Positions 2,117 through 61,184 are shown, counted from the first letter of the stretch. The stretch: DNA of 64,000 nucleotides from Candidatus Obscuribacterales bacterium (GCA_965228855.1 CBDDIJ010000002.1:512001-576000), one strand, 5' to 3'. A program made the numbers and translations. The notes: a model not told the origin generated them from the letters alone.

Positions 2117-2344
2117 TATCTACTCCGTTTCCGTTCTCAGACTGAACGACTTCTTTTTTCGCGCCCACGAAACATCGCCGGCCACAATCACTGTCGGTCG
2201 AATGTTACCAGGGATATACCCCGATTGTGAACCGCACACCAGTCTCTCTACTATATGCCGCCATGATTTGTTTCTAGTAATTTCACTTAAACGGCGGGCA
2301 TTTCAGACGATTTCTACGTTCTGTCATCTCAGAAAAACTGCTTC

Positions 2345-2396
2345 TGTCTACGAGACGTTGCCGCTTTTCGCGAAATTCGTCATCGTCTCGTAGACA
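2345..2396. repeat. 52-bp dyad element, copy 1
   Basis: tgtcta-cgagacgt-tgccg-cttttcgcgaaatt-cgtca-tcgtctcg-tagaca; CTACTATA at 2248, TATAGTAG at 2485 and 2511. Confidence 0.9.
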
Positions 2397-2534
2397 AGCG
2401 GGCAAATTTGCCTTGAGTCAGACCAGGTGGATGCTCGAAAGCACCACGGTTACTCATCAGCCGGAAAACACGGATACGCCCGAATATAGTAGTTAATTCT
2501 TACGCTCAAATATAGTAGTAAATTCTTCAAAAAT

Positions 2535-2574
2535 CAGAGAGCCTGGAGCTTGGGCAAGCATCCAGGACTCTCTG
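2535..2574 (-). terminator. Intrinsic terminator after the DUF218 gene
   Basis: Hairpin cagagag-cctgga...tccagg-a-ctctctg with an A-run at 2529-2533 (U-tract on the minus strand). Confidence 0.6.
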
Positions 2575-2625
2575 CAAAGCTATGGGTTATCGCGTCGCAA
2601 GTTTCTTTCTAAGCCTGGAACTTGT

Positions 2626-3192
2626 TCAGGCAGCTCGCTCTTTGTAAGCGGGAATCCGCTTGAGGAGCTTTTCCATGCACGCCGACAAATCTCCTGGATT
2701 GATATCCTCGAAGAATTCGCGTGCACGTATCATCGCTGCCGGAGCACCAGACTGTCGGTTTTCACGCGACCATTCCGGAGCTTCATGGGCCACGACTTTC
2801 CACTTAGGTCCAAGTACTTGTTCGAAGATGTACACCGCGCGTTCCATATGGAACGGCGAAGTGACCACGAACAGCGTACCCGGCTCCATGTGCTGGAGGT
2901 GGCGAGAGACGGTGAAGATGGCATTGCCGAAGGTGTCGAACGACTGATCCTCCAGCAAGACATCCTCACTCACTCCCTCAGCTTTGATGATTTCCGCCAT
3001 CACAGCGGCTTCGGTTTTTCCGTGCCCCGAAGTGTCACTCGGAGCGCGAGAACCTGACGCGATAAGCCTCATCGGTTGGCTTTTGACCAGGGCGGCCGCG
3101 GTTTTTGCCCGCAAAGCCGTCACCTCAGTCGCCGTACCGTCAGCTTTTAAACCACTGCCAAGCACGACGGCGACTGAGTTCTCGAACGACAT
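2626..3192 (-). CDS. YdcF/DUF218 (ElyC/SanA-like) family protein
   Basis: VVLGSG, IASG, EAAVMA, LEDQSFDTFGNA and VVTSPFHMERA motifs typical of DUF218. Confidence 0.88.
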   Translation of the reverse strand: MSFENSVAVVLGSGLKADGTATEVTALRAKTAAALVKSQPMRLIASGSRAPSDTSGHGKTEAAVMAEIIKAEGVSEDVLLEDQSFDTFGNAIFTVSRHLQHMEPGTLFVVTSPFHMERAVYIFEQVLGPKWKVVAHEAPEWSRENRQSGAPAAMIRAREFFEDINPGDLSACMEKLLKRIPAYKERAA

Positions 3193-3210
3193 GTCAGTGC
3201 TCGTCGATTC

Positions 3211-4131
3211 TCAGTCGGGGTCGGTGCTGCCGGTCGTCACAGGTCCAGTGCCGGTTTCCGGCTGAGCGTCGGAGACGCTGCCGCAACCGCACGAACTCGG
3301 AGCCGGAGCACCGCCCTTGTCGGCAGGGGAGGAAGGAGACGGAAGACCAAGACGAATCGCCCGGCGGCGCCGGCGAATCAAGCGGTTGAGAGCGCTCTCT
3401 TCGACGTCGAGCCAGTCCTTGCAGCGCATGGTCTCGAATCCGGTATTCTCGGGCAGCTTGTCGCTTGCCGAGGCCAGGCTGGTCTCCAGGGGCAAGTAAA
3501 CAAAGTTGGTCTTCGACAGCGCAGCACCGTCGGACCGGATGCTGTTGCCGACGAAAGCCGAGTAGTGGGGGCTGGCGTCCATGTCTTCGATGAACTGACC
3601 CACGAGGCCGGCCTTGTTCTCCTGCAGCGTGATGATGATGTCGTCGAAAACCGCCGACAGACCACCCTGCCGAATCTTGTACTTCTGCGCCTCACGGTTG
3701 CCGACGGTCACAGCCACAATCATGAAGTTGTGGCGCGCGCGCGTCAGCACCGGCAGCGCGTAGTCGAACAGCTCCGGAGGGTTGAAGAACGGGGCACGCC
3801 CGATGCGCTCGCAGATGTCGGCGACGAGCTTCTTGCGTCGAACCCCATTTTCACGGCAGAGCGCAGTGTAGGACTCGGCAATCGCCTGACCGAACTTTCC
3901 GCGCTCGAAGCCGCGATGGGGCATGGACCCGTAGTAAACCTGATTGAGCTTGGCCTCAGCCGCTTTGCGATTGAAACCGCAAAGGCTCATCAGCTCGGCA
4001 AACTCCTGAATCGCTCCGTCGAAATACTTCTGACAGACCATCACGGTACCGTCGATGTCGACGAAGAGAACAGCGAGTTTGCCATCTGGAGCGCACATGT
4101 TGCGATCCGGAGTATGACAGTTAGTCACCAT
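3211..4131 (-). CDS. HAD-superfamily hydrolase
   Basis: Motif I FVDIDGT, motif II VTVG, motif IV-like FVGNSIRSD; low-complexity C-terminal tail; AGAGG RBS. Confidence 0.8.
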   Translation of the reverse strand: MVTNCHTPDRNMCAPDGKLAVLFVDIDGTVMVCQKYFDGAIQEFAELMSLCGFNRKAAEAKLNQVYYGSMPHRGFERGKFGQAIAESYTALCRENGVRRKKLVADICERIGRAPFFNPPELFDYALPVLTRARHNFMIVAVTVGNREAQKYKIRQGGLSAVFDDIIITLQENKAGLVGQFIEDMDASPHYSAFVGNSIRSDGAALSKTNFVYLPLETSLASASDKLPENTGFETMRCKDWLDVEESALNRLIRRRRRAIRLGLPSPSSPADKGGAPAPSSCGCGSVSDAQPETGTGPVTTGSTDPD

Positions 4132-4647
4132 AGGTCACCTCTTCCGTTATCCGATGCGCCACACCAGCAAAACCGGCTTCGCAGCCCGTTTCACAATGGA
4201 GCGATGTATCGGTGATTCAGTTCGGACAATCAAACCGGAAAGATCACGGACGAACCAATACAAGCCACACGTTGTGCACCTGCCTTAGTTCTGGAATCCG
4301 AAAATACTTGTATTTACTGGCTTGATGTCTGAATCAAAAAAATAAGATTGTGTTTCAAACTTAAGGGCTCTCGTTCTACCACGTAAATCCAGTAGTCAAG
4401 AGCACCATATCTCAATGGCGGCTTTCCACAAAGGCAAAAATAAGCTGAGTACAGCGATTCGAAATATCCGTTGTTTCTCTCAGGGCTCGCAAACAGTCAA
4501 TCTTTATACCTGCGCGAGCTAGATTCTCATGACAAGCCGAGCTCCAAGCACAGCCTCGCTTTTAAGACTCTGAAACCTTGCGCTAACCAAGCAAAAACGA
4601 GCCCAAGTCAGGCTCGTTTTCAAGTGCAGTATGTCCCTTGTCCTGAC

Positions 4648-5313
4648 CTACGGCTTCGCAACCGCGTCTTTGTTGAAGGATGTGATGTTCGAAAGGAAGG
4701 CTTCGACCTCGTTCATATCGATTGGCTTATCATCTTCACTCGCTGCATACACTGTGACCGCCGCGTCCGGTGTCGGCAGTACGCAGCCCATGAAAGCCGG
4801 CGAGCGCTTACCAGTCGATTTATTTTCCGACATCCCGAGAATATAGGGCATCTCCATGCCGCCAACAGTGGTTTTACCTTTCTTCTCCACTTCGATTGTC
4901 GTCGTCGAGGACGATCCCCCTGCGCCAGGAGTCGAGACACCTCGCTCGGCAATCTGCTCCACGAGCTGGTCCGCAGATGTTACCTTCGAGTCGGAGTTCG
5001 GAACTTTAATTAGCATGTAAGTCGTCTTGGTGCTCTCGTTCTGCACCGCAACCATAGGCAGCATGCCGAACATGTCGAAACCGAAGGCGTACTTATATGG
5101 TGGTCCCAACTCCTTCATGGTGACCATCTTTGCGACGACTTTCTTCGCATTCTCAGGATCCATAGCCTTCTGCACTTCCTGGTAGCCAACGTAAAAAACC
5201 GTTCCGCACGTCGCCAAACACAGAACGAATCCGACAGCCATGATTCCAAGCAACCATTTGAGCCAGGTTGCGATGCCTTTGTTGTTGCGGCTTTGGCGTT
5301 GGCGTTTCATCAT
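4648..5313 (-). CDS. Membrane-anchored hypothetical protein
   Basis: Basic N-terminus, one TM helix with Cys (LCLATCG), soluble domain; start chosen at ATG 5313 after AAAAGG. Confidence 0.75.
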   Translation of the reverse strand: MMKRQRQSRNNKGIATWLKWLLGIMAVGFVLCLATCGTVFYVGYQEVQKAMDPENAKKVVAKMVTMKELGPPYKYAFGFDMFGMLPMVAVQNESTKTTYMLIKVPNSDSKVTSADQLVEQIAERGVSTPGAGGSSSTTTIEVEKKGKTTVGGMEMPYILGMSENKSTGKRSPAFMGCVLPTPDAAVTVYAASEDDKPIDMNEVEAFLSNITSFNKDAVAKP

Positions 5314-5871
5314 TGCACCTTTTCTTGAGAGGAGAAACAGACCTGATTTCCGTTTGCTCAGTTTATCATTCATATACACTTAATGCTTAACGGCAATATC
5401 GCAACAATTGGTCGCGAAACCCGTTTCACTAGCGCGAGCACTTAGCAACCGCGAGTGGTGGCAGATATATCTGTTCGATACGAAAAACACTTGCAGCGAT
5501 TCAAATGCGCATATCGGCTTGCAATAGGCAGAACCGCTTGAATTCTCGCCCTTAAACATTTGATTCAGTTTGTGCGCTAATCAGTGATCAAAAAGAAAAC
5601 GTAAACAGCAGGTTCGCGGTATTGATTTAGAGCGGCAAAACACCGTTCACTACTCTGGTAATTATTTCGAATCACTCTTGGAATTCCCGAACCAAAAACG
5701 TTCTGCGCCCCACGGAATCCAACTCCTTATCGAACTCAGCCTCTGACATCGAGGTGCAGTTAGATCGCCGTTTTGAAACCGACTCTCACAGAGCCGGTGG
5801 TGTGATTCGCGATGATTGCTCTGTCTTGCAGACTCTTCATGCTACTTCCAGACTTCCCAAGGAAAACAAAA

Positions 5872-6195
5872 ATGCAAGGCGTGACTGAACTCAACACTTC
5901 CAATTTCGACAGCACCGTGCTCCAGAGCTCCCAGCCGGTCATCGTCGATTTCTTCGCTACCTGGTGCGGCCCCTGCCGTCAGCTCAGCCCGCTTCTCGAG
6001 CGCCTTTCCGCCGAATACGCCGGACGTGTCACGATCGTGAAGGTCAATGCCGATTCCAGCATGGATCTGGCAGCGAAATACAACGTGAGCGGCTTGCCGA
6101 CACTGTTGTTCTTCAAGGATGGACAAGTGGTCGTGCGCAAGGCCGGTCTCGTCCCGCTCGGTGAACTGAAGCGAATTTGCGACTCGCTGCTCTAA
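5872..6195 (+). CDS. trxA: Thioredoxin
   Basis: WCGPC active site, VIVDFFA, GLPTLLFFKDG; ATG 5872 after AAGGA. Confidence 0.93.
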   Translation: MQGVTELNTSNFDSTVLQSSQPVIVDFFATWCGPCRQLSPLLERLSAEYAGRVTIVKVNADSSMDLAAKYNVSGLPTLLFFKDGQVVVRKAGLVPLGELKRICDSLL

Positions 6196-6224
6196 GCCGT
6201 TTCTCGTTCCGTTAAACCGTGGCC

Positions 6225-6260
6225 GCGGAGATGTCTACTTAAGTGGCATCTCCGCCTTTC
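6225..6260 (+). terminator. Intrinsic terminator after trxA
   Basis: gcggagatg...catctccgc stem followed by ctttc. Confidence 0.55.
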
Positions 6261-6403
6261 TGCTCGCGAGGAGACTCGCTTGTGATGCAAATTTACTTCA
6301 GAAAAGGAGACGAACATTTGATCGAATGCCGCACCAGATATGGTGCAAAGCTCGCATTACTGAGCGAAGCCTCTGGCAAAAACTAAAAACAGGGCTCATA
6401 ACA

Positions 6404-7585
6404 ATGAGAACAATTGCTCTGTTTCTCGCAGCTTTGACCTTAACTTTTGGATTCGCAGTCGAAACCCACGCTGACGATAAGGTCGCAACACCCGAAGACG
6501 CGAATAGCGTTTCCACCGCCCGGAAAGACTTGGAAACAGCCGCAGCTGACGCGAAGCTGAATCTGGCTCGTCTGCAAGAACGAATGAACGAGTTCGAATC
6601 CCGCGCCACCAATAGCGGTATCACCTCGAAACAAATTTCTGACAGCTATAGCCGCTTGACTGAGTTACTGGTCGCGACCGGCAACGGTCCGCACTTCGAC
6701 ACCGTGACACGCCAGCGGCTGGTCGAGCTGGTGATGCACAACATCGCTCGTCCGACTAAGATCGATCAGGGCGCACACCCGACCTGCAATGTCACCACGC
6801 TCGAAGTGTACACAGCGGCCCGACATCCCGACGTTTATGCCGACCTTGTTAAACAGGTAGCTCTGACGGGTGAGTACGCGACCCAGACCAAAGAAACCGT
6901 ACATATCCCGAAAGCTGCTTTGATGCCGGGCGATGACGAGAAAAGTTTCGACATGGATAAGCCGGCGTCCAACAAGCGAAATCACGCCAGTCAAATCATT
7001 CAGATGACATTCATCAACGGCGTGTATGAAACCGGTCGCTACCACTCGACCGATCATCAGGGCAAAAAGATTGACTGCACCGGTTATCGATATGTGATGG
7101 GTCCGCCCGTGAAAACCTGGTTTACGTTACCCGACGGAAACCGAGCGTTCACGACCGACGAAGATAAACTAATCGACGGCAACGGAAAGCAGATCCGCGA
7201 CAGTCAGGGGCAACTCTCTACGAGTCCAATCTTCATCGGAACCGATGTACTGGCTGCATCTGAGATGGTTCTCGGTTATAAGATGCCTTATTTGAACTCG
7301 CCTTACAAAGTCGAAAACCAACCGTGGGTCTTCGATTTACCGACAAAAGAGCGGCTTTTGAAATACAAGAAAGACGGTCAATTTCCGCTAGGCGTGCCGA
7401 CCCGGCGCGGTAACCACGTGCAAACCATTCACGACGTCATCGAAGAGAATGGAAACGTCTGGATCTTGATCGACAATCAACACGGCGAAAAAGAAGACGG
7501 TTGGATCACGCTCAGTGAGCTGCATAAAACAATGCAAGATGCAAACTATGATTTAAAAACGCGCAAAGAGCGACCGACAAAGTAA
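6404..7585 (+). CDS. Secreted protein, putative papain-fold (clan CA) cysteine peptidase
   Basis: Signal peptide MRTIALFLAALTLTFGFAVETHA; DQGAHPTC (Q-x5-C), GNHVQTI and WILIDNQHG echo papain QGSCGSC, NHAV and WIVKNSWG. The CDS is secure; the function is inferred. Confidence 0.7.
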   Translation: MRTIALFLAALTLTFGFAVETHADDKVATPEDANSVSTARKDLETAAADAKLNLARLQERMNEFESRATNSGITSKQISDSYSRLTELLVATGNGPHFDTVTRQRLVELVMHNIARPTKIDQGAHPTCNVTTLEVYTAARHPDVYADLVKQVALTGEYATQTKETVHIPKAALMPGDDEKSFDMDKPASNKRNHASQIIQMTFINGVYETGRYHSTDHQGKKIDCTGYRYVMGPPVKTWFTLPDGNRAFTTDEDKLIDGNGKQIRDSQGQLSTSPIFIGTDVLAASEMVLGYKMPYLNSPYKVENQPWVFDLPTKERLLKYKKDGQFPLGVPTRRGNHVQTIHDVIEENGNVWILIDNQHGEKEDGWITLSELHKTMQDANYDLKTRKERPTK

Positions 7586-7720
7586 CAAAGCGCCACCAGG
7601 ATTGGTGCTGAGATGACAATGAGTTTCTGACAGAGAGCCCGGGAGTCTACCAGCCATGCTTCTCCCCCTCTCGTCAAAGCGGCGCTTCTACTATACACGC
7701 TCGTTGAGTAAAACTGTCCG

Positions 7721-9943: not shown

Positions 9944-10184
9944 GCACGCTCATCCTCCGGAGATACTCGCGCTAAATCATATCTCGTTTGGATATCAATT
10001 GCTTTTAAAAGCCCATCGCAAGACTTGATGTATATCTTTTCAACAGTTAAACCCCCAGCGCGCGCCGTTTATCACAACGAAAAATGACCGCAGCGCCGAA
10101 TTTTCATTGAGTTTTTAGCGAAGATAGACGATAATTTCATCGTTCGAGGCGTCCCGTATCGTCGATGTTTTAACGATCGAAAGC

Positions 10185-27598: not shown

Positions 27599-27683
27599 CG
27601 CGAACCCGCTACTATATCACCCCAAAGACAGTTCAAGCACCGGGCGGGCTTTCGGACATCATGATCAGACTTGAGCTTTGCTT

Positions 27684-27735
27684 TGTCTACGAGCCATTGC
27701 CGCTTTTCGTGAAATCCGGCAATGTGTCATAGACA
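27684..27735. repeat. 52-bp dyad element, copy 2
   Basis: tgtcta-cgagccat-tgccg-cttttcgtgaaatc-cggca-atgtgtca-tagaca; CTACTATA at 27609, TATAGTAG at 27826. Confidence 0.9.
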
Positions 27736-27857
27736 AACAGGCAAAAAGATAACGGCTTCGGATAGGTGGGCGCCCGAAAGCCCCATGGGTTAACTACTCT
27801 GCCGGATTTGCTAAATACTGCCTTTTATAGTAGCAAAACCGAAGAGGCGAAGACCGC

Positions 27858-27959: not shown

Positions 27960-28172
27960 TCAGTCCTGGTCTTTGAACACGATCCCGATGGTGACGAGCA
28001 TGTTCAGGAAGGCGTTGACCATGAAGAACATGGTCCACTGCAGGTCGTTCGCTTCGTTGAAGTGGTGAGCTCCGACGAACGACGAGATGGTGATGAAGAG
28101 CGCGATGCAACCGCGAACGCGATCGCTCTTGCTCGAAATACCGGTCCCGGTGGGTTTGAACATCGGGGTCAT
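27960..28172 (-). CDS. 70-aa two-TM membrane protein translationally coupled to ftsH
   Basis: TAATG stop/start overlap with fts[18 protein letters not shown]...CIALFITISSFVGA...WTMFFMVNAFLNMLVTIGIVFK. Confidence 0.7.
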   Translation of the reverse strand: MTPMFKPTGTGISSKSDRVRGCIALFITISSFVGAHHFNEANDLQWTMFFMVNAFLNMLVTIGIVFKDQD

Positions 28173-30358: not shown

Positions 30359-30831
30359 ATCCGTTACTCCAGATTTGAAGGCTGGATTAGACGCAGCCTT
30401 TGTCCGGCATATTTGCGGGACGAGCGAAAAAGGGTAAGAACACCGCTCGAGTGACTCGAACGATCCATGACGCGCTTGCAACTGAGACTCACCCACCGTA
30501 AAGACCCGCCGTCACTGTTTAAGACGCGCGAAATCTGATTTTGGAGGTGAAAAGGTTATTGTGCCTTGGTTTTCTCAGAGAGTTGCAGAAGCTGATATGT
30601 AATTCGAACCTACGCGCCGAGGCATCCTCATGACAATAGGCCGATAGTCGTAACTGACAACTATTTACCATATGAACTTTTATGTTTCCTTAAGAATCCT
30701 TGAAACCTAGCGCTAGATTAGCGTAGCGGCAGAGAAGACAGAGCCACTACTATCACATACAGGATCCGCAAAATCGTACAGAGCCCTAGCAGACCGGCTT
30801 TCCGGGTTCCAGCTATCCGTAGCCCCGAATT

Positions 30832-30883
30832 TGTCTACGAACGGATGACGGAATGCGAGAAAATCGGCATCCCCTGAGAGACA
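30832..30883. repeat. 52-bp dyad element, copy 3
   Basis: tgtcta-cgaacgga-tgacg-gaatgcgagaaaat-cggca-tcccctga-gagaca; CTACTATC at 30747, TATAGTAG at 30986. Confidence 0.85.
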
Positions 30884-31327
30884 AGCCGCCTTCTCAGGGC
30901 TAGACCCCGTTCGGCAAAATCTCTGCAGACCGAGCCGGGTCAACCTTCCTGACGATTCAGACGTGGCTCAAAGATTCTTATCCCGTATAGTAGCACGAGC
31001 AATACTAGCGCGAGCTGAGTCGTGCAGTAACAAAGCCGAAAAGGCTCACGGTTTCATATTGTATCTAGTTGTAAAGAGAATAGTTAATCAAACTTTTGAT
31101 GATTCAAAATATCCATTTCTGCTTGTCTAGATGTATCCACATCACTTCGATCTCTGAAGGCAACTTTCTCTCTAAAAACAGCGCCTCTAGCTCTAAATAG
31201 TTGCCTCTCTCTGAACGATTTGACCGTTGGTAGACAATCGCACGTTCGCACGTGGGGTTGTGTCGGTGGGTTCAATCCGCTGTGCGGGATGAATCCAGTG
31301 TCTTAGCTTTCGCATCAGGAGCGAATC

Positions 31328-32708: not shown

Positions 32709-32829
32709 CGAACACGCTCTACTATACAGCTTCGTATTCGACACCAAGAGCACCAAGCAACGAAGAACCAAGCAGAACTGCAATCCCCGTAACCAAGGGG
32801 GAAGGATAGGCAATTCTGTAAGTTGGGTT

Positions 32830-32881
32830 TGGCTACGCTGCGTTGACGGAAATAGCGAAATTCGTCGCTCTCTCGTAGCCA
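32830..32881. repeat. 52-bp dyad element, copy 4
   Basis: tggcta-cgctgcgt-tgacg-gaaatagcgaaatt-cgtcg-ctctctcg-tagcca; CTACTATA at 32719, TATAGTAG at 32962 and 33067. Confidence 0.88.
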
Positions 32882-33074
32882 GACGAAGAGAGGTCAAGCT
32901 ATCTGGAGGCTGAGGACTCTGACTATACGGGCATTTTACGTGCTCACTGGAGACTGTCTTCTATAGTAGATAAGCCTCGGTAGCCAGACGAAGAGAGGTT
33001 AAGTTATCTGGAGGCCTAGGACCATGACTATACGGACATTTTACGCGTTCAACTGAGACTGTCTTCTATAGTAG
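32875..33074 (+). repeat. Imperfect tandem duplication, period 105 bp
   Basis: gtagccagacgaagagagg...gactatacgg...gagactgtcttctatagtag at 32875-32969 and again at 32980-33074. Confidence 0.9.
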
Positions 33075-33358
33075 CAGGGCCACGGACTTGAAAAAGGTTT
33101 GCTTGGTTTAGTAGGTTCTGGAATCGTTTTCTCTTCACACACACGATTTATCGAAAAAACAAATCAGGCGCCCCGACCGACAGTCACCGGAGAAGCTTCA
33201 CAGCTCCCGCGTTCGAACGACCTCGCCTGACTTTGACGATTTGCGCCGATACGGATGTTCCGCCTCGGTGATGCAAGCGCGTTTTCAAAACCGCTTGCGA
33301 CTTCCTAGCACCACCCGACTCGCACTGCGAGTTGCTCTCTTTTTTTGGGAGACCAAAG

Positions 33359-35534: not shown

Positions 35535-35730
35535 CGCCGAGAACGATTGACTAATTTTTCTTTGCGCAGCTATGTGACATTCTATAGTAGCTATGCCTAA
35601 CAGCCCAAATCGGCGAGACAATCCCAAATCGATGGCAGCACGAGAGAAAAGTAGCAAGGAAAGTTTCATGTGAATGGAGACCGGTTTTGAACCGATCTCC
35701 ATTCCACGACGTAAGCGTTTCAATCAAACG

Positions 35731-40078: not shown

Positions 40079-40205
40079 CCTTCTAAATTTTGCTACTAAC
40101 ATATACAGTACAGGCCTACCTACTAAAACATACAGTAATTTTCAAATCCCTAAAGACAGTCAAGACATGGAAATACGGAAATGGCTGCCTAGAGACACCC
40201 CGGCT

Positions 40206-40257
40206 TGTCGCTCTCAGAATGCCGAATTTTGGGAATTCCGGCAACGCCTCATAGACA
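40206..40257. repeat. 52-bp dyad element, copy 5
   Basis: tgtcgc-tctcagaa-tgccg-aattttgggaattc-cggca-acgcctca-tagaca; CTACTAA variants at 40093 and 40120. Confidence 0.8.
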
Positions 40258-40285
40258 AGCAAGGTTGCGCGCCTATCCGGGTGAC

Positions 40286-40472
40286 GGGATTGACGGGGCT
40301 CGAGCTAGACCCGATCTGTCAATGGGACAGCGACGGAATTCGCTAGATCCGTCGCTCTGGGATTGACGGGACTCGAGCTAGACCCGGTCTGTCATTTAGA
40401 CAGCGACGGAATTCGCTAAATCCGTCGCTCTGGGATTGACGGGACTTGAGCTAGACGGGGCTTGAGCTAGAC
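40286..40472 (+). repeat. 73-bp tandem repeat (about 2.4 copies) containing 52-bp dyad copies 6 (40317-40368) and 7 (40390-40441)
   Basis: Unit starts at 40286, 40359 and 40432; core tgtcaa-tgggacag-cgacg-gaattcgctagatc-cgtcg-ctctggga-ttgacg. Confidence 0.9.
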
Positions 40473-50590: not shown

Positions 50591-50639
50591 TCGGGCTCAC
50601 TGAAGCTCGTTTCTAAAACAAATAAGCACTCGTAACCTC

Positions 50640-50680: not shown

Positions 50681-50785
50681 AAAAACCCTCTACTATATGA
50701 TCCCGTTTCTCTCAAAGCTCAAAGAGTCGACAGTGCGTACGTTTCGAGCATTCGAACAGTTTCTGCCTTAGCCCGAAGAGCCATT

Positions 50786-50837
50786 TGGCTATCCCACGAT
50801 GCCGGATTTCGCCAAAAGCGTCATTCCAGGATAGACA
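50786..50837. repeat. 52-bp dyad element, copy 8
   Basis: tggcta-tcccacga-tgccg-gatttcgccaaaag-cgtca-ttccagga-tagaca; CTACTATA at 50690. Confidence 0.92.
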
Positions 50838-50953
50838 CGAAGGGCGTCAACTCGCCTACTATATACTTTCGTTTCCCTTAAAGACCCAAAGCGCTGACTA
50901 TTCGCCGCTTTTGAGCCTTCGGGCAATTTCGAGACTAACCAGAAACAGTCATC

Positions 50954-51005
50954 TGTCTATCCCACGATGCCGGTTTTCGCCAAAAGCGTCATTCCAGGAT
51001 AGACA
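50954..51005. repeat. 52-bp dyad element, copy 9
   Basis: tgtcta-tcccacga-tgccg-gttttcgccaaaag-cgtca-ttccagga-tagaca; CTACTATA at 50856, CATAGTAG at 51084. Confidence 0.92.
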
Positions 51006-51098
51006 AAAGACCCCTAGCGTCTTAGCCTTATCCCCGAACCTCAATGCGCAAGGTACTTCGCAGCAATGCGATGCGCTACATGGCATAGTAGTAATTTT

Positions 51099-52037: not shown

Positions 52038-52385
52038 AACATCTGGAACTCACTCCTCTCCACTCTTTGAAAGAATTAGCGCTAGCAACACCAATTGGAT
52101 CTTACATAGATAGGTGCTCCAGCAAAGGGTTTTATTTGCGGAAACGAATTCAGCACGCGTACGGTGAAGACATCATCACTCAACAACCGAATCTCTGGAA
52201 TATCTCTCCCGCAGCCGCTTCTGTCTAGCCCACAACTTCTCCTCGACGCAGTTTCACTGTGACGGTGAGATCGGCAATGCACAGAATCGGCAGCAAACGC
52301 GTTCGAGAGCAGTCCCCGAAGATTCACGCCTCGTCCCAGTTTTGCCACTCGGTGGCAGGACATATTTTTCACACTGGAGGTTGCT

Positions 52386-53405: not shown

Positions 53406-53409
53406 ACCG

Positions 53410-53450
53410 AGACAGGGGATGAACACAACCGTTCTTCCCCTGTCTTCTTC
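53410..53450 (+). terminator. Intrinsic terminator after the S41 peptidase gene
   Basis: agacagggga-t-gaac...gttc-t-tcccctgtct followed by tcttc. Confidence 0.7.
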
Positions 53451-53557
53451 CAAATCATGTCTACTATATGCCACCGTCTGTCACCAAGTCCCCGAGCGTC
53501 CATGCGCAGTGAATCTCGGGCATCGCGCAGTTTAGGCTTTCTACGAAAAACGCCTTT

Positions 53558-53609
53558 TGGCTATCCCACGATGCCGGATTTCGCCAAAAGCGTCATTCCA
53601 GGATAGACA
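53558..53609. repeat. 52-bp dyad element, copy 10 (identical to copy 8)
   Basis: tggcta-tcccacga-tgccg-gatttcgccaaaag-cgtca-ttccagga-tagaca; CTACTATA at 53461, TATAGTAG at 53688. Confidence 0.92.
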
Positions 53610-53696
53610 CGAGACCGTCCGCGCCTTGCCTCAATCCCCAAACCTCAATACGCGAGAGACTTTATAGCGATCATAGCTTTTATACGCTATAGTAGC

Positions 53697-53741
53697 CTTC
53701 CGGCAACCACTCTTCCGGCAATCGCTCTTCCGGCAATCACT
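53697..53741 (+). repeat. 15-bp tandem repeat, three copies
   Basis: cttccggcaaccact / cttccggcaatcgct / cttccggcaatcact. Confidence 0.85.
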
Positions 53742-54141
53742 CGTCCGCGCGGAGCGCGCCGAGAACAGATTCGATTCGCGCGAGGTTTACAATTCGCTCC
53801 TGGGCAAGCGCGTCTTCGCCGACCTCCTGAATGCGCTTCAGAAGCGACTCTTCGCACACCTCAAGCATGTCGGGCGCAATCAGTTTCGCCACCGTAAAGG
53901 TGCGACTGTTATTCTCCCGATCCTCTGGATCTGCCGAGCCGAGCAGCAGCAAGACGTTTCCATCCAGGTTCAATATCCCATCAATTATTCGATGCAAGTC
54001 GTAGCCCGAAGCTTCATCGCGCACGACGCAAAGCGCCGCGCCATCGCGTTTAAACTTATCGTCCAAGCGCAACTGATGCCCTGACATCGCAACAACCGAC
54101 CCAATCATCATGTAGTTGGCGAGCTGTATTTCTCGATTCAT
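53737..54141 (-). CDS. Hypothetical protein, candidate immunity/partner of the upstream large protein
   Basis: 134-aa acidic ORF starting 12 bp after the 54154 stop, with GGAG RBS. Confidence 0.72.
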   Translation of the reverse strand: MNREIQLANYMMIGSVVAMSGHQLRLDDKFKRDGAALCVVRDEASGYDLHRIIDGILNLDGNVLLLLGSADPEDRENNSRTFTVAKLIAPDMLEVCEESLLKRIQEVGEDALAQERIVNLARIESVLGALRADE

Positions 54142-54153
54142 CGAATCACTCCG

Positions 54154-56547
54154 TTATTTTCTCCAGATTATGGCAGGATCACACGGGTCCACACCGACCG
54201 CGCGGTAAAGAGCATACAAAGCCGGTCTCTCAACGAGCTGCCCAAAAGTGGTGCTCATCTCCGATTCAACCGCGTAGTAACCGGCTCCGTCCGAGCGCGA
54301 CTGCCCACCGCCCGACCTGAGCATCAGCCGATCACCCGCGCCATAAACCATCGTTCCTGGCTTCAGCCCTGTCTTTTGCTCGATTGCAGAAAGCATCGGC
54401 TGAGTCAGTTTAGAGCCAGGCGATAGCTTAAAACTCGCAACCAATCGCTGTTCCACAACCGCGTCCAACACTGGACCTTTGAACGAAACATTGTACATCG
54501 GATCAAAGTAGCGCCCCTCTTCGAATGTGTCACGGCTGACTGCAGCCCGCATGGAAAGCCCGCCCGCAACTTCGGTATTGCCCGTTTTAATCTCTTCCTT
54601 CAATCCAAGCCCCTTCGCATGCAGTATACCGTCAACTCGCTTCTGAACCTTGATCGCTTCCTCTGCGGTTTTCGTGTATATCGTAAACGCCTTGGCGCCC
54701 TGTCCAACTCCATCCGGCGCGACCACTCCGGGTCGTCCCTGCCCCTCCGTCGCGAAAGCGGGATCCATCCCTCTCCATTTCGCGACATACTTGAGCAACT
54801 CCGCATCCCGCATCAGCTCAGGGATCAACGCGCTCTGAACCCTCGCCAGATCCTCCGCCGACTCGGTCAAAACATGAACTTTTATCGGAGACGGCGCCTT
54901 GCCATCGCCCGGAGTGACGGCGTTAAACCAACCTTCCCATTTCATCATCTTCAGTTCATGTTGACCACACTTTAAAATACGAACGCAATCATCATTTGCT
55001 CTAACGCACTCATAGCCACTGTGAGCCAGTTTCGGAAGCTCTTGAACATCGCGCTGTTTGTACTTTTCCACGCGTCCTTCAGGAGCATCGCTTTTGGTTT
55101 TTAAACCTTCCGCGCCTTCCGCAGCCGTTTCGTGCTGTTTACCAGCCCCACCCTTGCCACCACCACTGGTGACAGCCTTTTCAACACCATGCGCTGCCGC
55201 AAAACCCAAACCGACCAACGTCGCATCAGCGAGTGGCTCCCCGAGATTATCTTCGGTAATCGCTTTTGCATGCGCAAATGTTTTCTCACTCGGATGACTA
55301 CAACAATCCTGAAGCGCCGGCAACGACTTCATCAAACCGTTGTATCCATCGGCTCCGACCTGACCGATTTCTTTTACCGCCAGCGCAAGACCACCGGCCT
55401 GCAATGCGCGCGCACCAAGTCGCGTCCACGGGTTCACGTTAGCAGCAAGCGTGCCGACAACCTTGCCAAACGCGACACCCATCGCGGTGCCCGAGGCAAG
55501 ATCGCCAATCGCGCCACCCTGAATGACCTTATGAAGAACCGCTTTCGATGCCCCGATCGCCGCACCATCCCCTAGCGCTGCGCCGGCAAGCATCAAACCA
55601 CGAACCGGATCCGGCATGTGACGCGTTTCGTTTAAAGTGCTCTTCGTCAGAGCCTCCTGATACTTTTCCAACGCCAGATCGCAAACCGCGAGATTTCTTA
55701 AATTCTGTTTTTCAAAATCAGTGAGTCCTTTTTCGCCCCGATTGACGCCATGCTTGTCGGTCGCCGACAGGTTCTTTCGGTAGAGTTCCTCTATCCGATG
55801 ATTGTCTGCCGGTGTCAGCCGCACTTCCACCATCTTCGGCAAAACCATTGGCGATGCCATGGATTTATAATCCGGCATCCACAAACTCGTATCCTGTTTA
55901 ATTAATCCAACCTTGTCACCACCCACGGTGTCATGCTCCACGGACCGATCCGACAGATGGTCGGAATGTTTCGCGGCGAGCAAGTTTCGTTCCATCTCGA
56001 CGATCTTGTCGCCGGCAGACTTATGTTTAGTTTCGCGCGTCTGCCCATCAGCTGTTTCAGATTTAATCGGCGTGCCGTGCTTCGCGGCGAGCCGCTCTCG
56101 CTCCATCTCGATAATCTTGTCACCAGCGGACTTGTGGGGCGCACTATGCCTAGCCTCACCCGTTGGCATTTTCAGCTCATCATCCCTCTGCAGACCAGCT
56201 GGCTTTTGCAGCTCATCACGCTTTTGCTCAGTAGCCGGTTCGGCTCTGCCAGGCGTACCGGGTTTCCCTTCAACCTGCGCGACCAACTTGGAGCGCCGCT
56301 TGCTTGCATCGTAAAACGTTTCGCCCGTGGTGCTGTCGTGCAGGATGAGCGGCTGTTCGGCCTTAACATGCAGCCCGAGCGCCTTCGTATCATGGCTCAG
56401 ACTCTCAAAATTCTCGCTATGCCTTTTCGCTTGCGTATCGCTCGAAATAGCTTCATTCGCGGTTTTCTGCGAGGTAGTCTGTTTGTGGTTGTCGGAAGCG
56501 TCGCGTTTCGCATCGATCGGTTTATGTTTCTCACGGTCCTGGGACAT
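54154..56547 (-). CDS. Large modular protein, putative polymorphic toxin/effector with a phosphothreonine-lyase-like C-terminal domain
   Basis: Charged disordered N-terminus with duplicated HKSAGDKIxEMERxxLAAKH, Gly/Ala-rich hydrophobic middle, C-terminal KVH...KWR...GAKAFTIY. The CDS is secure; the function is inferred. Confidence 0.7.
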   Translation of the reverse strand: MSQDREKHKPIDAKRDASDNHKQTTSQKTANEAISSDTQAKRHSENFESLSHDTKALGLHVKAEQPLILHDSTTGETFYDASKRRSKLVAQVEGKPGTPGRAEPATEQKRDELQKPAGLQRDDELKMPTGEARHSAPHKSAGDKIIEMERERLAAKHGTPIKSETADGQTRETKHKSAGDKIVEMERNLLAAKHSDHLSDRSVEHDTVGGDKVGLIKQDTSLWMPDYKSMASPMVLPKMVEVRLTPADNHRIEELYRKNLSATDKHGVNRGEKGLTDFEKQNLRNLAVCDLALEKYQEALTKSTLNETRHMPDPVRGLMLAGAALGDGAAIGASKAVLHKVIQGGAIGDLASGTAMGVAFGKVVGTLAANVNPWTRLGARALQAGGLALAVKEIGQVGADGYNGLMKSLPALQDCCSHPSEKTFAHAKAITEDNLGEPLADATLVGLGFAAAHGVEKAVTSGGGKGGAGKQHETAAEGAEGLKTKSDAPEGRVEKYKQRDVQELPKLAHSGYECVRANDDCVRILKCGQHELKMMKWEGWFNAVTPGDGKAPSPIKVHVLTESAEDLARVQSALIPELMRDAELLKYVAKWRGMDPAFATEGQGRPGVVAPDGVGQGAKAFTIYTKTAEEAIKVQKRVDGILHAKGLGLKEEIKTGNTEVAGGLSMRAAVSRDTFEEGRYFDPMYNVSFKGPVLDAVVEQRLVASFKLSPGSKLTQPMLSAIEQKTGLKPGTMVYGAGDRLMLRSGGGQSRSDGAGYYAVESEMSTTFGQLVERPALYALYRAVGVDPCDPAIIWRK

Positions 56548-56790
56548 GAAACAACCCCCACAAGCGCCGTACTAGAGCGGCCGATCCGAACACGTAAACG
56601 AGTTATACCCTCGCAAAACCATACCTGAACTCAGGGAAAACCATAAGAAAAACCAAAGCGCAAATGTGCAGGTTGCAAAACACAAATGCGCTCTGGTTTT
56701 CTTTCGGCGGAGGAGCGAAGCACTTTCCGACTTCGCTTTTACAGCTTCGGGGCGGACTCAGTTCGGGGAAACCCAGCCCGCCCCGCCGTT

Positions 56791-57570
56791 TTAAATCGAG
56801 ATTCCACCGTCGCAAGCAATCGTGTGGCCGGTCACCCAGCGACCTTCATCGGAGGCAAGGAAGAGGACGGCATCAGCGATATCTTCGGGAGTTCCTACTC
56901 TTCCCAGCGCGGTGCGCTCCGTCATGTGAGCCTTCGCCTCTTCAGGCACAGCGGCGTTGTACATATCGGTGGCAGTGGTACCAGGTGCGACACCATTGAC
57001 GGTAATCTTTCGCGGTCCCAACTCTTGAGCCCAAACACGTGTGAGTGTATCAAGAGCCGCTTTGGTCGCGGAATAGACACTAGCACCAGGGAACGTCATG
57101 CGAGCAACACCGGAAGAGATGTTGATAATGCGACCACCGTCGGGCATAGCCTTGAGCGCCGCGACGGTGTTGGCAAGAACACCCTTGATATTGACGTCGA
57201 ACACTCGCTCGTAATGCTCCAATGTGATTTCGGTCACGGGAGCACCTTCAAAGACACCTGCGTTATTCACCAGAATGTCGACTCGGCCGAATCGCTTAAC
57301 CACAGCTTCCACGAGATCATCGCTTTCCTTTTGCGAGGATGCGTTTGCCTGGATTGCCAGACCTTCGGTTCCCAGCGAACCAATACGCTCGACAATGCTA
57401 TCGGCCGGTCCCTTGCTTTTCTGATAACTGATCGCTACCTTGGCGCCTTCTTGCGCCAACTTCAATGCGATCGCAGCGCCGATACCGCGGGAGCCACCAG
57501 TCACGAGAGCAACTTTTCCCTCTAAACGCTTGAGTCCTACATTTTCTTCCGTTACTTGTGCCGTTGGCAT
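56791..57570 (-). CDS. Short-chain dehydrogenase/reductase (classical SDR)
   Basis: TGGSRGIG, NNAG, NISS, YSATK, VNGVAPG. Confidence 0.95.
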   Translation of the reverse strand: MPTAQVTEENVGLKRLEGKVALVTGGSRGIGAAIALKLAQEGAKVAISYQKSKGPADSIVERIGSLGTEGLAIQANASSQKESDDLVEAVVKRFGRVDILVNNAGVFEGAPVTEITLEHYERVFDVNIKGVLANTVAALKAMPDGGRIINISSGVARMTFPGASVYSATKAALDTLTRVWAQELGPRKITVNGVAPGTTATDMYNAAVPEEAKAHMTERTALGRVGTPEDIADAVLFLASDEGRWVTGHTIACDGGISI

Positions 57571-57613
57571 GAGAATCTCCTTGTTTTTGGAATGGTTTTT
57601 AAGGATACCGAGT

Positions 57614-58054
57614 TTAAGCGACGGCTGTTTCCAGGCAGCGTTCGCTTAAACGAGAGAGTGTCTGTTCGGCGCGCAGCGCCACATAGGGGTTTTCATCAGC
57701 TGCAAGTGTTTCCAAAATGCAAGGTGATAAAAGTGGATTTTCGGCTAAACCGAATCTAACGTCGGCACTATCACTGGTGGCAAGTTGCTTGAGAAACATG
57801 CGAGGCAGGGATGGGTTGTACGATAAACTCAGCCTGACATCAGCGTTTTCATCCTCCAGTAATCGAAGGAGAACGCTTGTCGGCGTTGAGGCATTTTCCG
57901 CGACACGCGCCCTTACGGCCGGGTCGTTTGACTTTGACAATTCACTTAGTAGCAACGCCGTCAATTGGGTGTCGCCGGCAATAAGATATTGGACACTGAC
58001 CGGTGCCGAACTGCGTTTAGTTTTCCATTGTAAATCCTGATTCGAAATGCACAT
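57614..58054 (-). CDS. Leucine-rich-variant (LRV)/HEAT-repeat protein
   Basis: Repeats of VRARVAENASTP, VRLSLSYNPSLP and VRFGLAENPLLS. Confidence 0.8.
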   Translation of the reverse strand: MCISNQDLQWKTKRSSAPVSVQYLIAGDTQLTALLLSELSKSNDPAVRARVAENASTPTSVLLRLLEDENADVRLSLSYNPSLPRMFLKQLATSDSADVRFGLAENPLLSPCILETLAADENPYVALRAEQTLSRLSERCLETAVA

Positions 58055-58167
58055 TTTCCGATAACCTCGAACATATCATTAGACCGGTCTATTAGTTTCA
58101 TTTCAAAGAACTGGAACCGGTTTCATTAGCCAGTGCTGCAATCCAACCGAGCAGCAACAGTCCCCAT

Positions 58168-58187
58168 AATAGACCGGTCGGTCTATT
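58168..58187. promoter_or_regulatory. TetR-family (NemR-box-like) operator
   Basis: aatagacc-ggtc-ggtctatt contains TAGACC-N4-GGTCTA; a related spacer-less tagaccggtcta lies at 58080-58091. Confidence 0.6.
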
Positions 58188-58351
58188 CCTGTCAACTGCC
58201 CCAAAATTCGCTCATCAAAGATTGGCAATTCTAATGCCGAAGCATGCTACGGGAAAAATTACGTGAACATTGCAGGTTTTGCTCTGCAAAAAAGTTTCGA
58301 TTGGACGAACCATAACCTATTAAAATAGAGAGGCTACCCGGAGGTTCTCCG

Positions 58352-59251
58352 ATGAACATTCTTGTGAGCGGCTCTCGCGGCCTGCTCGGATCCGAACTGA
58401 TCCCTCGACTGAAAGCACGCGGTCATCAAGTGCGCCGCCTGGTGCGCTCTTCGAAGGATGCAAATCCGTCTGACTTTCTATGGGACCCTGCGACGGGCGA
58501 ACTTCAGGGGGAATTGAAAAACATCGAAGGCATCATTCACCTGGCTGGCGAAAGCATTGCCTCCAGCCGCTGGAATGACGCGAAGAAAAAGCAGATACGC
58601 GACAGTCGCATAAAGGGAACTACCTTCATAAGCGAAACAGCCGCGGCAATCCGACCGCTCCCCAGGGTGTTGCTCTGCGCATCGGCAATTGGATTTTATG
58701 GAGACCGAGGCAGTGAGACCCTTGACGAAAACAGCAGCAATGGCAGCGGCTTTCTCGCCGAACTCTGCAGGGATTGGGAAACAGCTACCAATCCGGCTCG
58801 GGATGCCGGCATCCGCGTAGTCAATCTTAGAATCGGTGTTGCTCTTTCACCAAAAGGTGGCGCCCTCGGGAAAATGCTGCTCCCCTTTCAACTTGGTGCT
58901 GGCGGAATTATTGGAAGCGGCAAGCAGGAAATGAGCTGGATAGCAATTGATGATGTGGCCGATGCGATGGTGCACTGCGTTGAGAATGAAACCATCTCCG
59001 GTCCCGTAAATCTGACTGCACCAAATCCGGTATCGAACAAAGAATTCACTCGCGCGATGGGTGCCGTGCTCGGTCGACCGACGCTGTTTCCAATGCCTGA
59101 CTTCGCTGCGCGTCTAGCGTTTGGCGAAATGGCAGATGAGCTATTGCTTTCAAGCGCCAAGGTTTTGCCTAAGAAACTTCAAGCAAGCGGTTTCCAGTTC
59201 GGCTATCCGGACATTGAAGGTGCACTGCGCCACGTGATTAACAAGAAATAG
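58352..59251 (+). CDS. TIGR01777-family NAD-dependent epimerase/oxidoreductase (YfcH-like)
   Basis: SGSRGLLGS, HLAGESIA..RW, SAIGFYG, WE, GSGKQEMSWI, GPVNLTAPNPV. Confidence 0.93.
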   Translation: MNILVSGSRGLLGSELIPRLKARGHQVRRLVRSSKDANPSDFLWDPATGELQGELKNIEGIIHLAGESIASSRWNDAKKKQIRDSRIKGTTFISETAAAIRPLPRVLLCASAIGFYGDRGSETLDENSSNGSGFLAELCRDWETATNPARDAGIRVVNLRIGVALSPKGGALGKMLLPFQLGAGGIIGSGKQEMSWIAIDDVADAMVHCVENETISGPVNLTAPNPVSNKEFTRAMGAVLGRPTLFPMPDFAARLAFGEMADELLLSSAKVLPKKLQASGFQFGYPDIEGALRHVINKK

Positions 59252-59259
59252 AGGGAAGC

Positions 59260-60513
59260 ATGAATCGCGACTACCAAGTCATCATCATTGGAGCAGGGCT
59301 AGCCGGACTGGCTTGCGGACTGCATCTCCAGAAGAAAAACATTCCCTTCATCATCCTCGAGAGTTCGGACGCACCTGGTGGGCGAATTCGCACAGACAAG
59401 GTTGATGGTTTTTTGCTCGACAGGGGATTCCAAATTTTATTGACGGAATATCCTGAGGCACGCAAACTCTTTGACTACGAAAAGCTTGATTTGAAGCCGT
59501 TTTCTCCCGGTGCTCTTGTGCGCCTCGGCAAGAAATTTCATAGAGTTACCGACCCTTTTCGAGAGCCTGATAAAGCACTTGAAACATTGTTCGCACCAAT
59601 CGGAACTCTCACCGATAAAATGAACATCGCGAAGATTCGTCTGACGCTAACTGGACAACCGATCGAGAAGATTCTGACCGCAACTGAATATACAACGATG
59701 GAGTTGCTCAAGCTACAAGGTTTTTCCCAATCGATAATCGATAAGTTTTTCAGACCATTTTTTGGAGGAATTTTTCTTGAGTCGAAGCTCGAGACTTCAA
59801 GCAGAAAGTTTGAGTTTTTCTTCCGAACATTTTCGGGCGGCGACAATGTTATTCCAGCCAAGGGAATGCAAGAACTGCCAAATCAGTTGGCAGAAAAGCT
59901 CGGGCTATCTAACATCAAGTTAAATACCAGAGTCACTAATGTGACCAATCAGACCGTAACGACTGAAGACGGCGAAATATATGAGGCACCGCATGTGGTG
60001 ATAGCCACAGATAGGCGAGCCATGGGAAAAATTCTCTATGGCACGGATTTGTCCGAAGACGACCGGTCTGTGACCTGCCTCTACTTTGCTTGCGACACCG
60101 CGCCGATAAAAGAACCGATTCTCGTTTTAAACGGAGAGAAAACTGGTCCGATCAACAATCTCTGCGTGCCGAGCAACGTCTCTCCCGACTACGCCCCGCC
60201 CGGACAGGCACTGGTTTCGGTGACTGTTCTTGGAACCCGCAAAGATCACAATGCGTTGGAAAAGGCGGTTAGAAGTCAACTTGAAGAATGGTTCGGACGC
60301 GATGTTAAAGGTTGGCGCCGACTGCGGACCTACAGAATCGACAACGCTCTGCCGAAACAAAATCCACCCACCAGCTTCGTGGAAAACAAAAATGAAGTTC
60401 GTCCTGGAATCTACGTGTGCGGTGACCACATGAGCACAGGTTCGCTAAACGGCGCTCTTGAATCGGGCCGAGAAGTCGCAGAGATGATCGAGAAAACTCT
60501 GCTGCAATCGTAA
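59260..60513 (+). CDS. FAD-dependent oxidoreductase (flavin amine oxidase family)
   Basis: IIGAGLAGL, GGRIRTD..DGFLLDRGFQ, CGDH..TGSLNGALESG. Confidence 0.92.
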   Translation: MNRDYQVIIIGAGLAGLACGLHLQKKNIPFIILESSDAPGGRIRTDKVDGFLLDRGFQILLTEYPEARKLFDYEKLDLKPFSPGALVRLGKKFHRVTDPFREPDKALETLFAPIGTLTDKMNIAKIRLTLTGQPIEKILTATEYTTMELLKLQGFSQSIIDKFFRPFFGGIFLESKLETSSRKFEFFFRTFSGGDNVIPAKGMQELPNQLAEKLGLSNIKLNTRVTNVTNQTVTTEDGEIYEAPHVVIATDRRAMGKILYGTDLSEDDRSVTCLYFACDTAPIKEPILVLNGEKTGPINNLCVPSNVSPDYAPPGQALVSVTVLGTRKDHNALEKAVRSQLEEWFGRDVKGWRRLRTYRIDNALPKQNPPTSFVENKNEVRPGIYVCGDHMSTGSLNGALESGREVAEMIEKTLLQS

Positions 60514-60558
60514 GCTAGCAACGGCGAAACTGCGGACGAGAGGTAGACCGTCATTAGC

Positions 60559-60582
60559 ACTGGACTGGACTGGACTGGACTG
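60559..60582 (+). repeat. (ACTGG)n microsatellite
   Basis: actgg x4 plus actg. Confidence 0.85.
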
Positions 60583-60605
60583 CCCTCCCCTCCCTTCGCT
60601 TTAAT

Positions 60606-60970
60606 ACTGCAAATTGGTTTGCAGCTTTTGGCTCAAAACCAGCAATCTAAATTGCAGCCACCGAATTATGTCCCCAGATTGGCGTCCTCTGCACTCTAAA
60701 TCGACCGACTGCAAATTGGTTTGCAGCTTTTGGCTCAAAACCAGCAATCTAAATTGCAGCCACCGAATTATGTCCCCAGATTGGCGTCCTCTGTACTCTA
60801 AATCGAACCGACTGCAAATTGGTTTGCAGCTTTTGGCTCAAAACCAGCAATCTAAATTGCAGCCACCGAATTATGTCCCCAGATTGGCGTCCTCTGCACT
60901 CTAAATCGACCGACTGCAAATTGGTTTGCAGCTTTTGGCTCAAAATCAGCAATCTAAATTGCAGCCACCG
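60606..60970 (+). repeat. 102-bp tandem repeat, about 3.6 near-identical copies, each with a 53-bp imperfect palindrome
   Basis: Units start at 60606, 60708, 60811 and 60913 (actgcaaattggtttgcagcttttggctcaaaaccagcaatctaaattgcagcc...). Confidence 0.95.
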
Positions 60971-60987
60971 CACTATGTCGTAGTGAT

Positions 60988-61038
60988 TTCTGATCTCATA
61001 TCTCATATCTCCTGTCTCATATCTCGTGTCTCATGTCT
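60988..61038 (+). repeat. Degenerate 7-bp tandem repeat (TCTCRTR-like) running into dyad copy 11
   Basis: tctcata tctcata tctcctg tctcata tctcgtg tctcatg tct. Confidence 0.8.
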
Positions 61039-61085
61039 ACGCCAGAGCGACGGATCTTCGGAAAAGCGTCAACGAGTCGTAGACA
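61034..61085. repeat. 52-bp dyad element, copy 11
   Basis: tgtcta-cgccagag-cgacg-gatcttcggaaaag-cgtca-acgagtcg-tagaca; TATAGTAG at 61166. Confidence 0.9.
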
Positions 61086-61184
61086 AACGCCTCGATGACG
61101 GAGTATGCCGATACGGAAGACCCGCTCACCACAACGGTTCCGAGCATTTCGGATTCACGAGCTCATATAGTAGCCAGTCATTGC

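Follow-up and report, generated by a model that had tools for sequence, protein, structure and literature searches.

The 64,000-nucleotide stretch of the genome of Candidatus Obscuribacterales bacterium, a non-photosynthetic organism related to cyanobacteria, analysed here (GCA_965228855.1 CBDDIJ010000002.1:512001-576000; hereafter the window, with positions counted from its first letter) carries dispersed 52-bp palindromes, here called cores, most of which are accompanied at a distance by a short outward-facing sequence, the box. Our analyses suggest that the cores are dispersed copies of a palindrome that flanks a gene for a hitherto unannotated protein combining a phospholipase D (PLD)-like nuclease domain with an XRE-type helix-turn-helix (HTH). 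The protein would, by a somewhat favoured interpretation of sequences and structure models, bind the cores and copy units of box, linker and core to gene ends, and it is towards this role of a mobiliser that we, on balance, lean. The best reading of the overall arrangement is that of an analogue of the REP/RAYT systems (repetitive extragenic palindromes, REPs, and their associated transposases), presumably operating with a different enzyme.

A core profile seeded with the nine cores of the window (table 1) converges genome-wide, retrieving 211 copies from the 8.2-Mb genome (G000) and none from a block-shuffled version of it at any threshold. As many as 179 of the copies sit on the contig C2, where their density is high between ~60 kb and 1.1 Mb, a span lying around dnaA and the skew switch (793 kb). 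This origin domain (G000:C2:60 kb-1.1 Mb), which includes the window, is sharply bounded also by its GC content at third codon positions (0.62-0.73 vs ~0.54 elsewhere) and its coding density (0.76-0.81 vs ~0.88 elsewhere). The core is an imperfect palindrome composed of an outer TGKCTAY, eight variable bases, an inner GMCG, a tract of A or T (W-tract) and a four-base centre, and its termini read TG...CA; the two halves, whose centres lie ~33 bp apart with W-tracts between them, form rough inverted repeats in their own right. The box is longer than eight bases and in its extended form reads CTACTATA-N6-MGTA. All boxes and distances listed for the window by an earlier note on this DNA were found again. 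The note had the boxes bracketing the core, which is true of 62 of the 211 cores and is thus a minority form, a single box being present at 117 cores and none at 32. Its expectation that boxes be commoner near cores holds: of the exact boxes in the origin domain, 171 fall into the 46 kb that lie close to cores, as opposed to 41 in the remaining 202 kb of intergenic DNA and four in 822 kb of genes. At the gathering score, the window has no match to a structured RNA family of Rfam.

The helical phasing proposed from the window likewise extends to the whole genome. Distances of exact outward boxes from the core do not form a flat histogram and cluster at 74-76, 84-88, 94-100 and 107-111 bp, with peaks at ~75, 86, 97-98 and 107-110 bp. 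For the 208 outermost arms the phase coherence R is 0.80-0.82 at periods of 11.0-12.0 bp and 0.75 at 10.5 bp, a measure that does not amount to an independent-sample test because the copies are related; the best-fitting period is 11.25-11.75 bp, with 10.5 bp fitting somewhat worse. This is near the helical repeat of 11.1-11.6 bp fitted for DNA loops in vivo, as given in the available text of PMC1762422. Steps and tracts of AA/TT in the linkers show a period of 10.5-11 bp, and in a genome from another genus (G026) the same boxes surround a different palindrome, 94-116 bp from the core centre. The idea of a composite, helically phased nucleoprotein site, put forward in the note, is therefore supported by these sequence patterns; what the note overlooked are the likely partner (the PLD nuclease-HTH gene flanked by the element), the box standing alone beside terminators of relatives, and the half element as the recurring unit.

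That the recurring unit is the half element, bounded by the outer box edge and the far core edge, is seen in two kinds of comparison. Tandem arrays mostly repeat box-linker-core (core-only and box-only arrays exist too), and the gap between the far end of a core and the box that follows it measures 6-10 nt in 16 of the 28 cores that are followed by a box in the same direction and then a further core. Linkers, moreover, have look-alikes at distant loci in 50 of 208 cases. In 17 distant arm pairs chosen on linker likeness alone, identity reaches 0.64 in the six variable bases of the box (background 0.33) and 0.89 and 0.85 in the core halves (background 0.63), but beyond the box it stays at the background level (0.24-0.35 vs 0.27-0.41), as it does 5-20 bp past the core (0.29 vs 0.26). 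The likeness thus begins at the outer edge of the box and stops within a few bases of the far core edge. Contigs from five sequencing runs, compared with two stretches, reveal no joint where elements end.

An all-against-all BLAST screen for paralogues in the origin domain, covering 4,946 of 5,996 queries, yielded a five-member family of proteins of 257-314 amino acids in G000. One of the genes (G000:C2:103074-103847, locus L173) is arranged as box-core-gene-core-box, and two further paralogues adjoin palindrome families other than the 52-bp core (families B and C). The proteins consist of a PLD-like domain, a CxxC pair and an XRE HTH, in this order. The signature HxK-x4-D-x6-GSxN with a downstream Glu is present in a Nuc-like fold, and of 27 complete copies, which are ~30% identical, 26 retain H-K-D-S-N-E together with CxxC. 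The predicted structure (predicted local distance difference test, pLDDT, 83) resembles the single-HKD nucleases NucT (E 1.6e-6), Zucchini and Nuc, with TrmBL2 also among the matches, whereas the HTH is nearest to HipB and to controller proteins of restriction-modification systems; the PLD part, in addition, resembles the C-terminal domain of PADLOC's MkoC. A homodimer is predicted with a score of 0.42 (best control 0.01), passing a mark that is passed by 20 of 30 solved pairs and one of 23 single chains; the runs share at least 38% of contacts at a pLDDT of at least 75. Since the interface is formed by the HipB-like HTH part, this pass may mirror likeness to solved dimers. One paralogue, L175:1969-2766 (G000:C2:917966), is devoid of the catalytic motif, and no palindrome family lies beside it.

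Homologues of the protein were matched in 56 of 104 genomes of the family, with a maximum of ten in one genome and with some matches representing the PLD part of a longer protein, but in none of 300 other genomes of the phylum; homologues with >50% identity are restricted, among the 104, to G000 and its relative G007. A wider search gave 33 matches, few of them full-length; metagenome and viral scans yielded near-identical copies (98%, 54%) and PLD-only matches and nothing else, and the ESM Atlas solely HTH look-alikes scoring under 0.9. The core itself has a narrower distribution: among 61 genomes its pattern matches G000 (183), G007 (144) and G006 (one), and the three named genome records that it matches (L087-L089) all belong to Obscuribacterales.

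The homologues are, very probably, paired with palindromes of their own, judging from the sequences around their genes. A private palindrome of ~50 bp occurs within 750 bp of the gene at 8 of 20 unselected homologue loci, compared with 10 of 400 stand-alone genes and 4 of 150 genes of relatives serving as controls, and many homologues carry it directly upstream. Wherever this was tested (G026, G061, G012, G006, G013 and families B and C of G000), the flanking palindrome recurs elsewhere in its own genome, with six copies in G006 and five tandem copies plus one in G013. Sister proteins own visibly related cores, as exemplified by the G000/G007 variant and a pair in G061. G012 and G061 each carry several palindrome families of their own, and G000 holds at least two (B and C) besides the 52-bp core; all these families measure ~50 bp and consist of two half-sites linked by W-tracts. 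Other genes, too, have cores on both sides: five of nine others scanned encode thioredoxin, a NADAR-like protein, adenylate kinase, a HAD protein and a protein without a family.

The box has a life outside the element and stands alone in relatives that do not have this core. In DNA of relatives that was not picked for boxes (1.02 Mb), a box profile gives 68 matches vs 33 in reversed controls; they read as a symmetrical TACTA-N7-TAGTA, in a logo biased by the derivation of the profile from G000. Hairpins with a U-tract resembling terminators face the box on one side in 39 and on the other in 25 of the 68 cases, compared with nine and four in the wrong orientation, and the box mostly lies 14-19 nt past the U-tract. 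The stand-alone motif was often seen between two convergent terminators. The extended box is enriched over control in G000, G007 and G026, and weakly in the family genomes G012 and G091. Where a G000 gene is followed by box and core, its orthologue shows a box at the corresponding end in 12 of 58 cases (9 of 55 after removal of three loci picked for the box), as opposed to 3 of 106 other gene ends. Because orthologous gene ends carry it, the box is at least partly an older host motif, and the protein bound to it would be a candidate termination roadblock factor of this lineage.

A number of observations weigh against the protein as a mobiliser. The PLD match falls below the Pfam cut-off in most copies, and the dimer model leaves the PLD domains unpaired. 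Twelve of the 20 unselected homologue loci lack a palindrome at the threshold used, a box lies upstream of the homologue at just 9 of 28 loci, and the putative master gene at L173 is found at the edge, not in the middle, of the core-dense region. The box is no mere product of the PLD-HTH enzyme, since it is enriched also in G091, the sole PLD match of which is part of a longer protein. No target-site duplication was detected at the 62 two-box elements (the longest flanking repeats are as in shuffled pairings, and the best fixed register reaches 13%), and no empty site defining the element ends was found in a comparison that has no power, an element locus occurring in only one of 90 conserved adjacent gene pairs. 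Between G000 and the 95%-identical G007, 291 of 342 intergenic regions were mapped (~800 kb of G007), 49 with an element in both genomes, none in G000 only and two in G007 only (one of these a decayed core), and there is no clean new insertion among them; the differences concern mainly array length, IS110 insertions and a few genes between cores. Host recombination could, finally, account for the exchange of arms and the growth of tandem arrays.

Such stability is what one would expect had the system been domesticated as an architectural one, the protein looping cores to the terminator box so that gene ends are insulated or supercoils of the origin domain relieved, in a chromatin or nicking role like that of TrmBL2, and the elements spreading via host repair only. 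The occurrence of TrmBL2 among the fold matches, the confinement of the elements to the 1.1-Mb domain around dnaA, their preference for convergent gene ends (64 of 160 element loci vs 74 of 373 regions) with avoidance of divergent spacers (13 of 160 vs 105 of 373), and the different cores placed at some orthologous boxes by G000, G012 and G026 are all in line with this scenario. We nevertheless regard it as rather unlikely, given that six of eight congeners have zero or one copy of the core and few palindromes of any kind in the ~390 kb examined, that unit boundaries are sharp at the box edge, and that each genome has several unrelated palindrome families. A self-regulating addiction or defence nuclease, restrained by the core as a C-protein-like double operator and leaving dispersed copies as decoys or by-products of cutting and repair, would agree with the affinities of the HTH to HipB and restriction-modification controllers, with the MkoC-like PLD part and with palindromes directly upstream of many homologues; we consider it improbable, as arrays and the region downstream of the gene contain sites too, the PLD-HTH gene was not seen to neighbour a partner gene for a toxin, methylase or helicase, and the phasing to the box is left unexplained.

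Two further alternatives had been raised by the note itself. According to one, the box is an outward -10 element served by an activator bound at the core, with antisense transcripts running into neighbouring 3' ends. TATAGT is compatible with TANNNT, and boxes are present on 148 of 214 arms facing a 3' end vs 60 of 108 facing a 5' end, but the fit is poor: a sigma-70 promoter would have its best-conserved bases in the -12 T and the -11 A, together with a -35 or an extended -10, whereas the presumed -11 and -12 positions of the box vary most, holding 42 of 56 single mismatches. Considering also that the core centre is 100-135 bp off, that the motif of the relatives is symmetrical and that no -35 was found, in agreement with the note, we deem this explanation very improbable. 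The other alternative, that the boxes are terminal inverted repeats of an old MITE (a miniature transposable element with inverted repeats), for which we considered mobilisation by a DDE transposase or through the genome's IS110 recombinases, draws on the TG...CA ends of the core and on the two IS110 elements that act on it; it fails because target duplications are absent, again in agreement with the note, and the unit is asymmetric, more than half of the cores (the 117 mentioned above) being one-boxed. As the IS110 insertion positions in the core are unrelated to the unit ends and the cores track the PLD-HTH paralogues, we give it hardly any credence.

Further candidates were tried and rejected. 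No RAYT/IS200 partner was found in the 95%-complete genome (no PF01797 match, with 6 of 14 controls positive), nor is there a PF07508 match indicating a large serine recombinase, an idea derived from the attP-like two-motif halves of the core; 17 tyrosine recombinase matches do occur. An integron attC array or a cluster of attC sites lacking integrase (CALIN) is not indicated either, with no match to the TIGR02249 integrase over the cut-off in the genome and with core ends that differ from the attC end consensus. On the tested features, the system thus fails membership in the REP/RAYT, MITE, integron and serine-recombinase classes.

If the PLD-HTH protein is indeed the mobiliser, one may envisage two HTH dimers sitting on the two half-sites of the core and a bent linker of 7-10 turns of ~11 bp carrying this complex over to the box, to which a conserved host protein would probably be bound. 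The PLD domains would then make their cuts a few bases beyond the box and beyond the far end of the core, possibly via a 5'-phosphohistidine open to attack by a 3'-OH, that is, with the chemistry of BfiI and the polarity of HUH transposases. The enzyme might either rejoin the DNA itself or only nick it and let host repair do the copying, and the outcome would be tandem arrays, arms exchanged from one locus to another and, in rare cases, the founding of a new site at a free box. To our knowledge, the transposases and recombinases known so far employ DDE, HUH, serine, tyrosine or DEDD/bridge chemistry. The PLD nuclease BfiI, by the available text of PMC2853115 and PMC2475615, forms a 5'-phosphohistidine, acts best on two sites and transesterifies in vitro. 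The system may, as a tentative proposal, represent a new class of mobile DNA, in which domesticated PLD nucleases with a swappable HTH would read a private 52-bp address and perform phosphohistidine cut-and-rejoin reactions at a terminator-side site, the binding site of a termination roadblock factor, via a phased loop. Neither a mobile element using a PLD nuclease nor a prior description of this system was found in the literature searched, which largely left out subscription journals and supplements. Were the proposal true, the 257-residue enzyme would offer a compact, testable route to a new chemistry of DNA cutting and joining, and its pairs of protein and site, which occur in nature by the dozen, would amount to a ready-made library of HTH specificities; the system would also provide a model for the origin of orphan bacterial repeat families without RAYT. 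For a lineage that has received little study, the analysis moreover reveals a puzzling DNA motif on the terminator side and an origin domain with sharp limits.

Several side observations accompany these results. Two IS110 elements, with three and four near-identical copies, each insert at one fixed position of the core, and the copies are absent from the same places of G007 where tested; like IS621 in REPs, such insertions constitute natural target sets of bridge recombinases. Cores of G007 enclose a short-chain dehydrogenase gene (L010:5865-7720) and a DUF421 gene (L026:10550-11420) where G000 has other content, hinting at gain or loss of cargo. The stretches of relatives orthologous to the origin domain are GC-rich as well, and the origin domain of the congener G002 contains other intergenic tandem arrays with periods of ~37 bp and 72 bp. 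The first 60 kb of C2 (high in GC and not collinear with G007) and the contig C4 (an AT-rich half followed by a GC-rich half) look foreign or mis-binned, with the contig C1 noted alongside them. In the window, long open reading frames without a Pfam family (419, 134 and 797 amino acids) lie beside elements (27960-28170 region, 6326-7585 and 53737-56547).

Table 1. Elements, boxes and palindrome arrays of the window, followed by related loci elsewhere; distances (bp) run from the outer box edge to the core edge, left and right of the core.
Feature	Position	Strand	Core	Left	Right	Remarks
Two-box element	2248..2492	.	2345-2396	97	96	Boxes 2248-2255 and 2485-2492; second box 2511-2518 follows; G012 shows the box but not this core at the orthologous gene end
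Stand-alone box, no core	7688..7705	+				Between convergent genes
Two-box element	27609..27833	.	27684-27735	75	98	Between convergent genes; left arm resembles sequence at G000:C2:375 kb
Two-box element	30747..30993	.	30832-30883	85	110	Left box with one mismatch
Two-box element	32719..32969	.	32830-32881	111	88	
Tandem duplicate of the preceding right arm	32980-33084					Box 33067-33074
Stand-alone box, no core	35573..35590	-				
Variant boxes, core and two variant cores	40093..40441	.	40206-40257; variants 40317-40368 and 40390-40441	113/86		Boxes at 40093 and 40120 with one mismatch; variant cores form a 73-bp tandem, and their sub-family also flanks a second PLD-HTH paralogue in G007
Two box-linker-core units in tandem, then right box	50690..51091	.	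50786-50837 and 50954-51005	96; 98	86	Period 168; box ending at 51091 with one mismatch; follows the terminator of the phosphoenolpyruvate carboxykinase gene, where G006 and G012 carry the box alone
Two-box element	53461..53695	.	53558-53609	97	86	Right arm 78% like 50943-51067
Family B palindrome	60606..60979	.				Four tandem copies of 102 bp; same build as the core element; further arrays of family B are found flanking a PLD-HTH paralogue (G000:C2:1042618)
One-box element	61034..61173	.	61034-61085		88	Left box absent
Stand-alone motif loci	7688, 35583; L144-L152; L113-L132					Window; G061; G012
IS110 element, three copies	G000:C2:774.7k, 858.6k, 1120.8k					
IS110 element, four copies	G000:C2:197.2k, 987.6k; C5:861k, 1461.4k					
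Tandem arrays of G002	L061 (G002:C101:97.4-97.8k); G002:C101:33.0-33.4k					

The nearest precedent are the REP, REPIN and BIME (bacterial interspersed mosaic element) repeats, which, as described in the available parts of PMC3116915 and PMC3733652, comprise hundreds of extragenic palindromes at gene ends, form tandem arrays and lineage-specific families, and in the case of REP/RAYT are matched, family by family, with a single-copy gene that has a repeat cluster beside it; the palindromes are, in addition, targeted by IS110 elements (PMC11208160, available part). Abundant extragenic palindromes, tandem clusters and one family per cognate gene are found here as well. The system differs in the absence of a Y1/HUH transposase from the genome, the flanked gene encoding a PLD-CxxC-XRE HTH protein instead, in the presence of a second motif in helical phase, and perhaps in the site itself, which looks as if read as duplex DNA and not as a single-stranded hairpin: arm-to-arm pairing is ~0.1 above chance, the complementarity at variable positions (0.36-0.62 vs 0.27-0.51 expected) being weakly above chance. 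BfiI, Nuc, NucT and Zucchini provide the parallel of an N-terminal single-HKD nuclease with a domain for DNA binding at the C terminus, but XRE HTH and CxxC here replace the recognition domain of BfiI, and a 52-bp double site is present in ~200 copies in the own genome with no methylase beside the gene. Operators of C-proteins and HipB share the HTH family, the predicted mode of dimerization and two dimer sites side by side, whereas the HTH here is fused to a nuclease and the sites are dispersed at 3' ends rather than placed at one promoter. Phased accessory-site complexes are known from lambda attP, the ends of Mu and Tn7, and IHF-containing BIMEs. The present element would resemble them in its size of 220-260 bp, bent linkers and whole-turn spacing near 11.1-11.6 bp (repeat: PMC1762422, available text); it differs in that neither a large serine recombinase nor an integron integrase above the cut-off was found in the genome, and in that the outer site is a host terminator-side motif. 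The archaeal chromatin protein TrmBL2, finally, likewise combines an HTH with a PLD-like fold, although in the opposite domain order; the catalytic motif of the protein described here is intact, and its sites would be cognate and sequence-specific.

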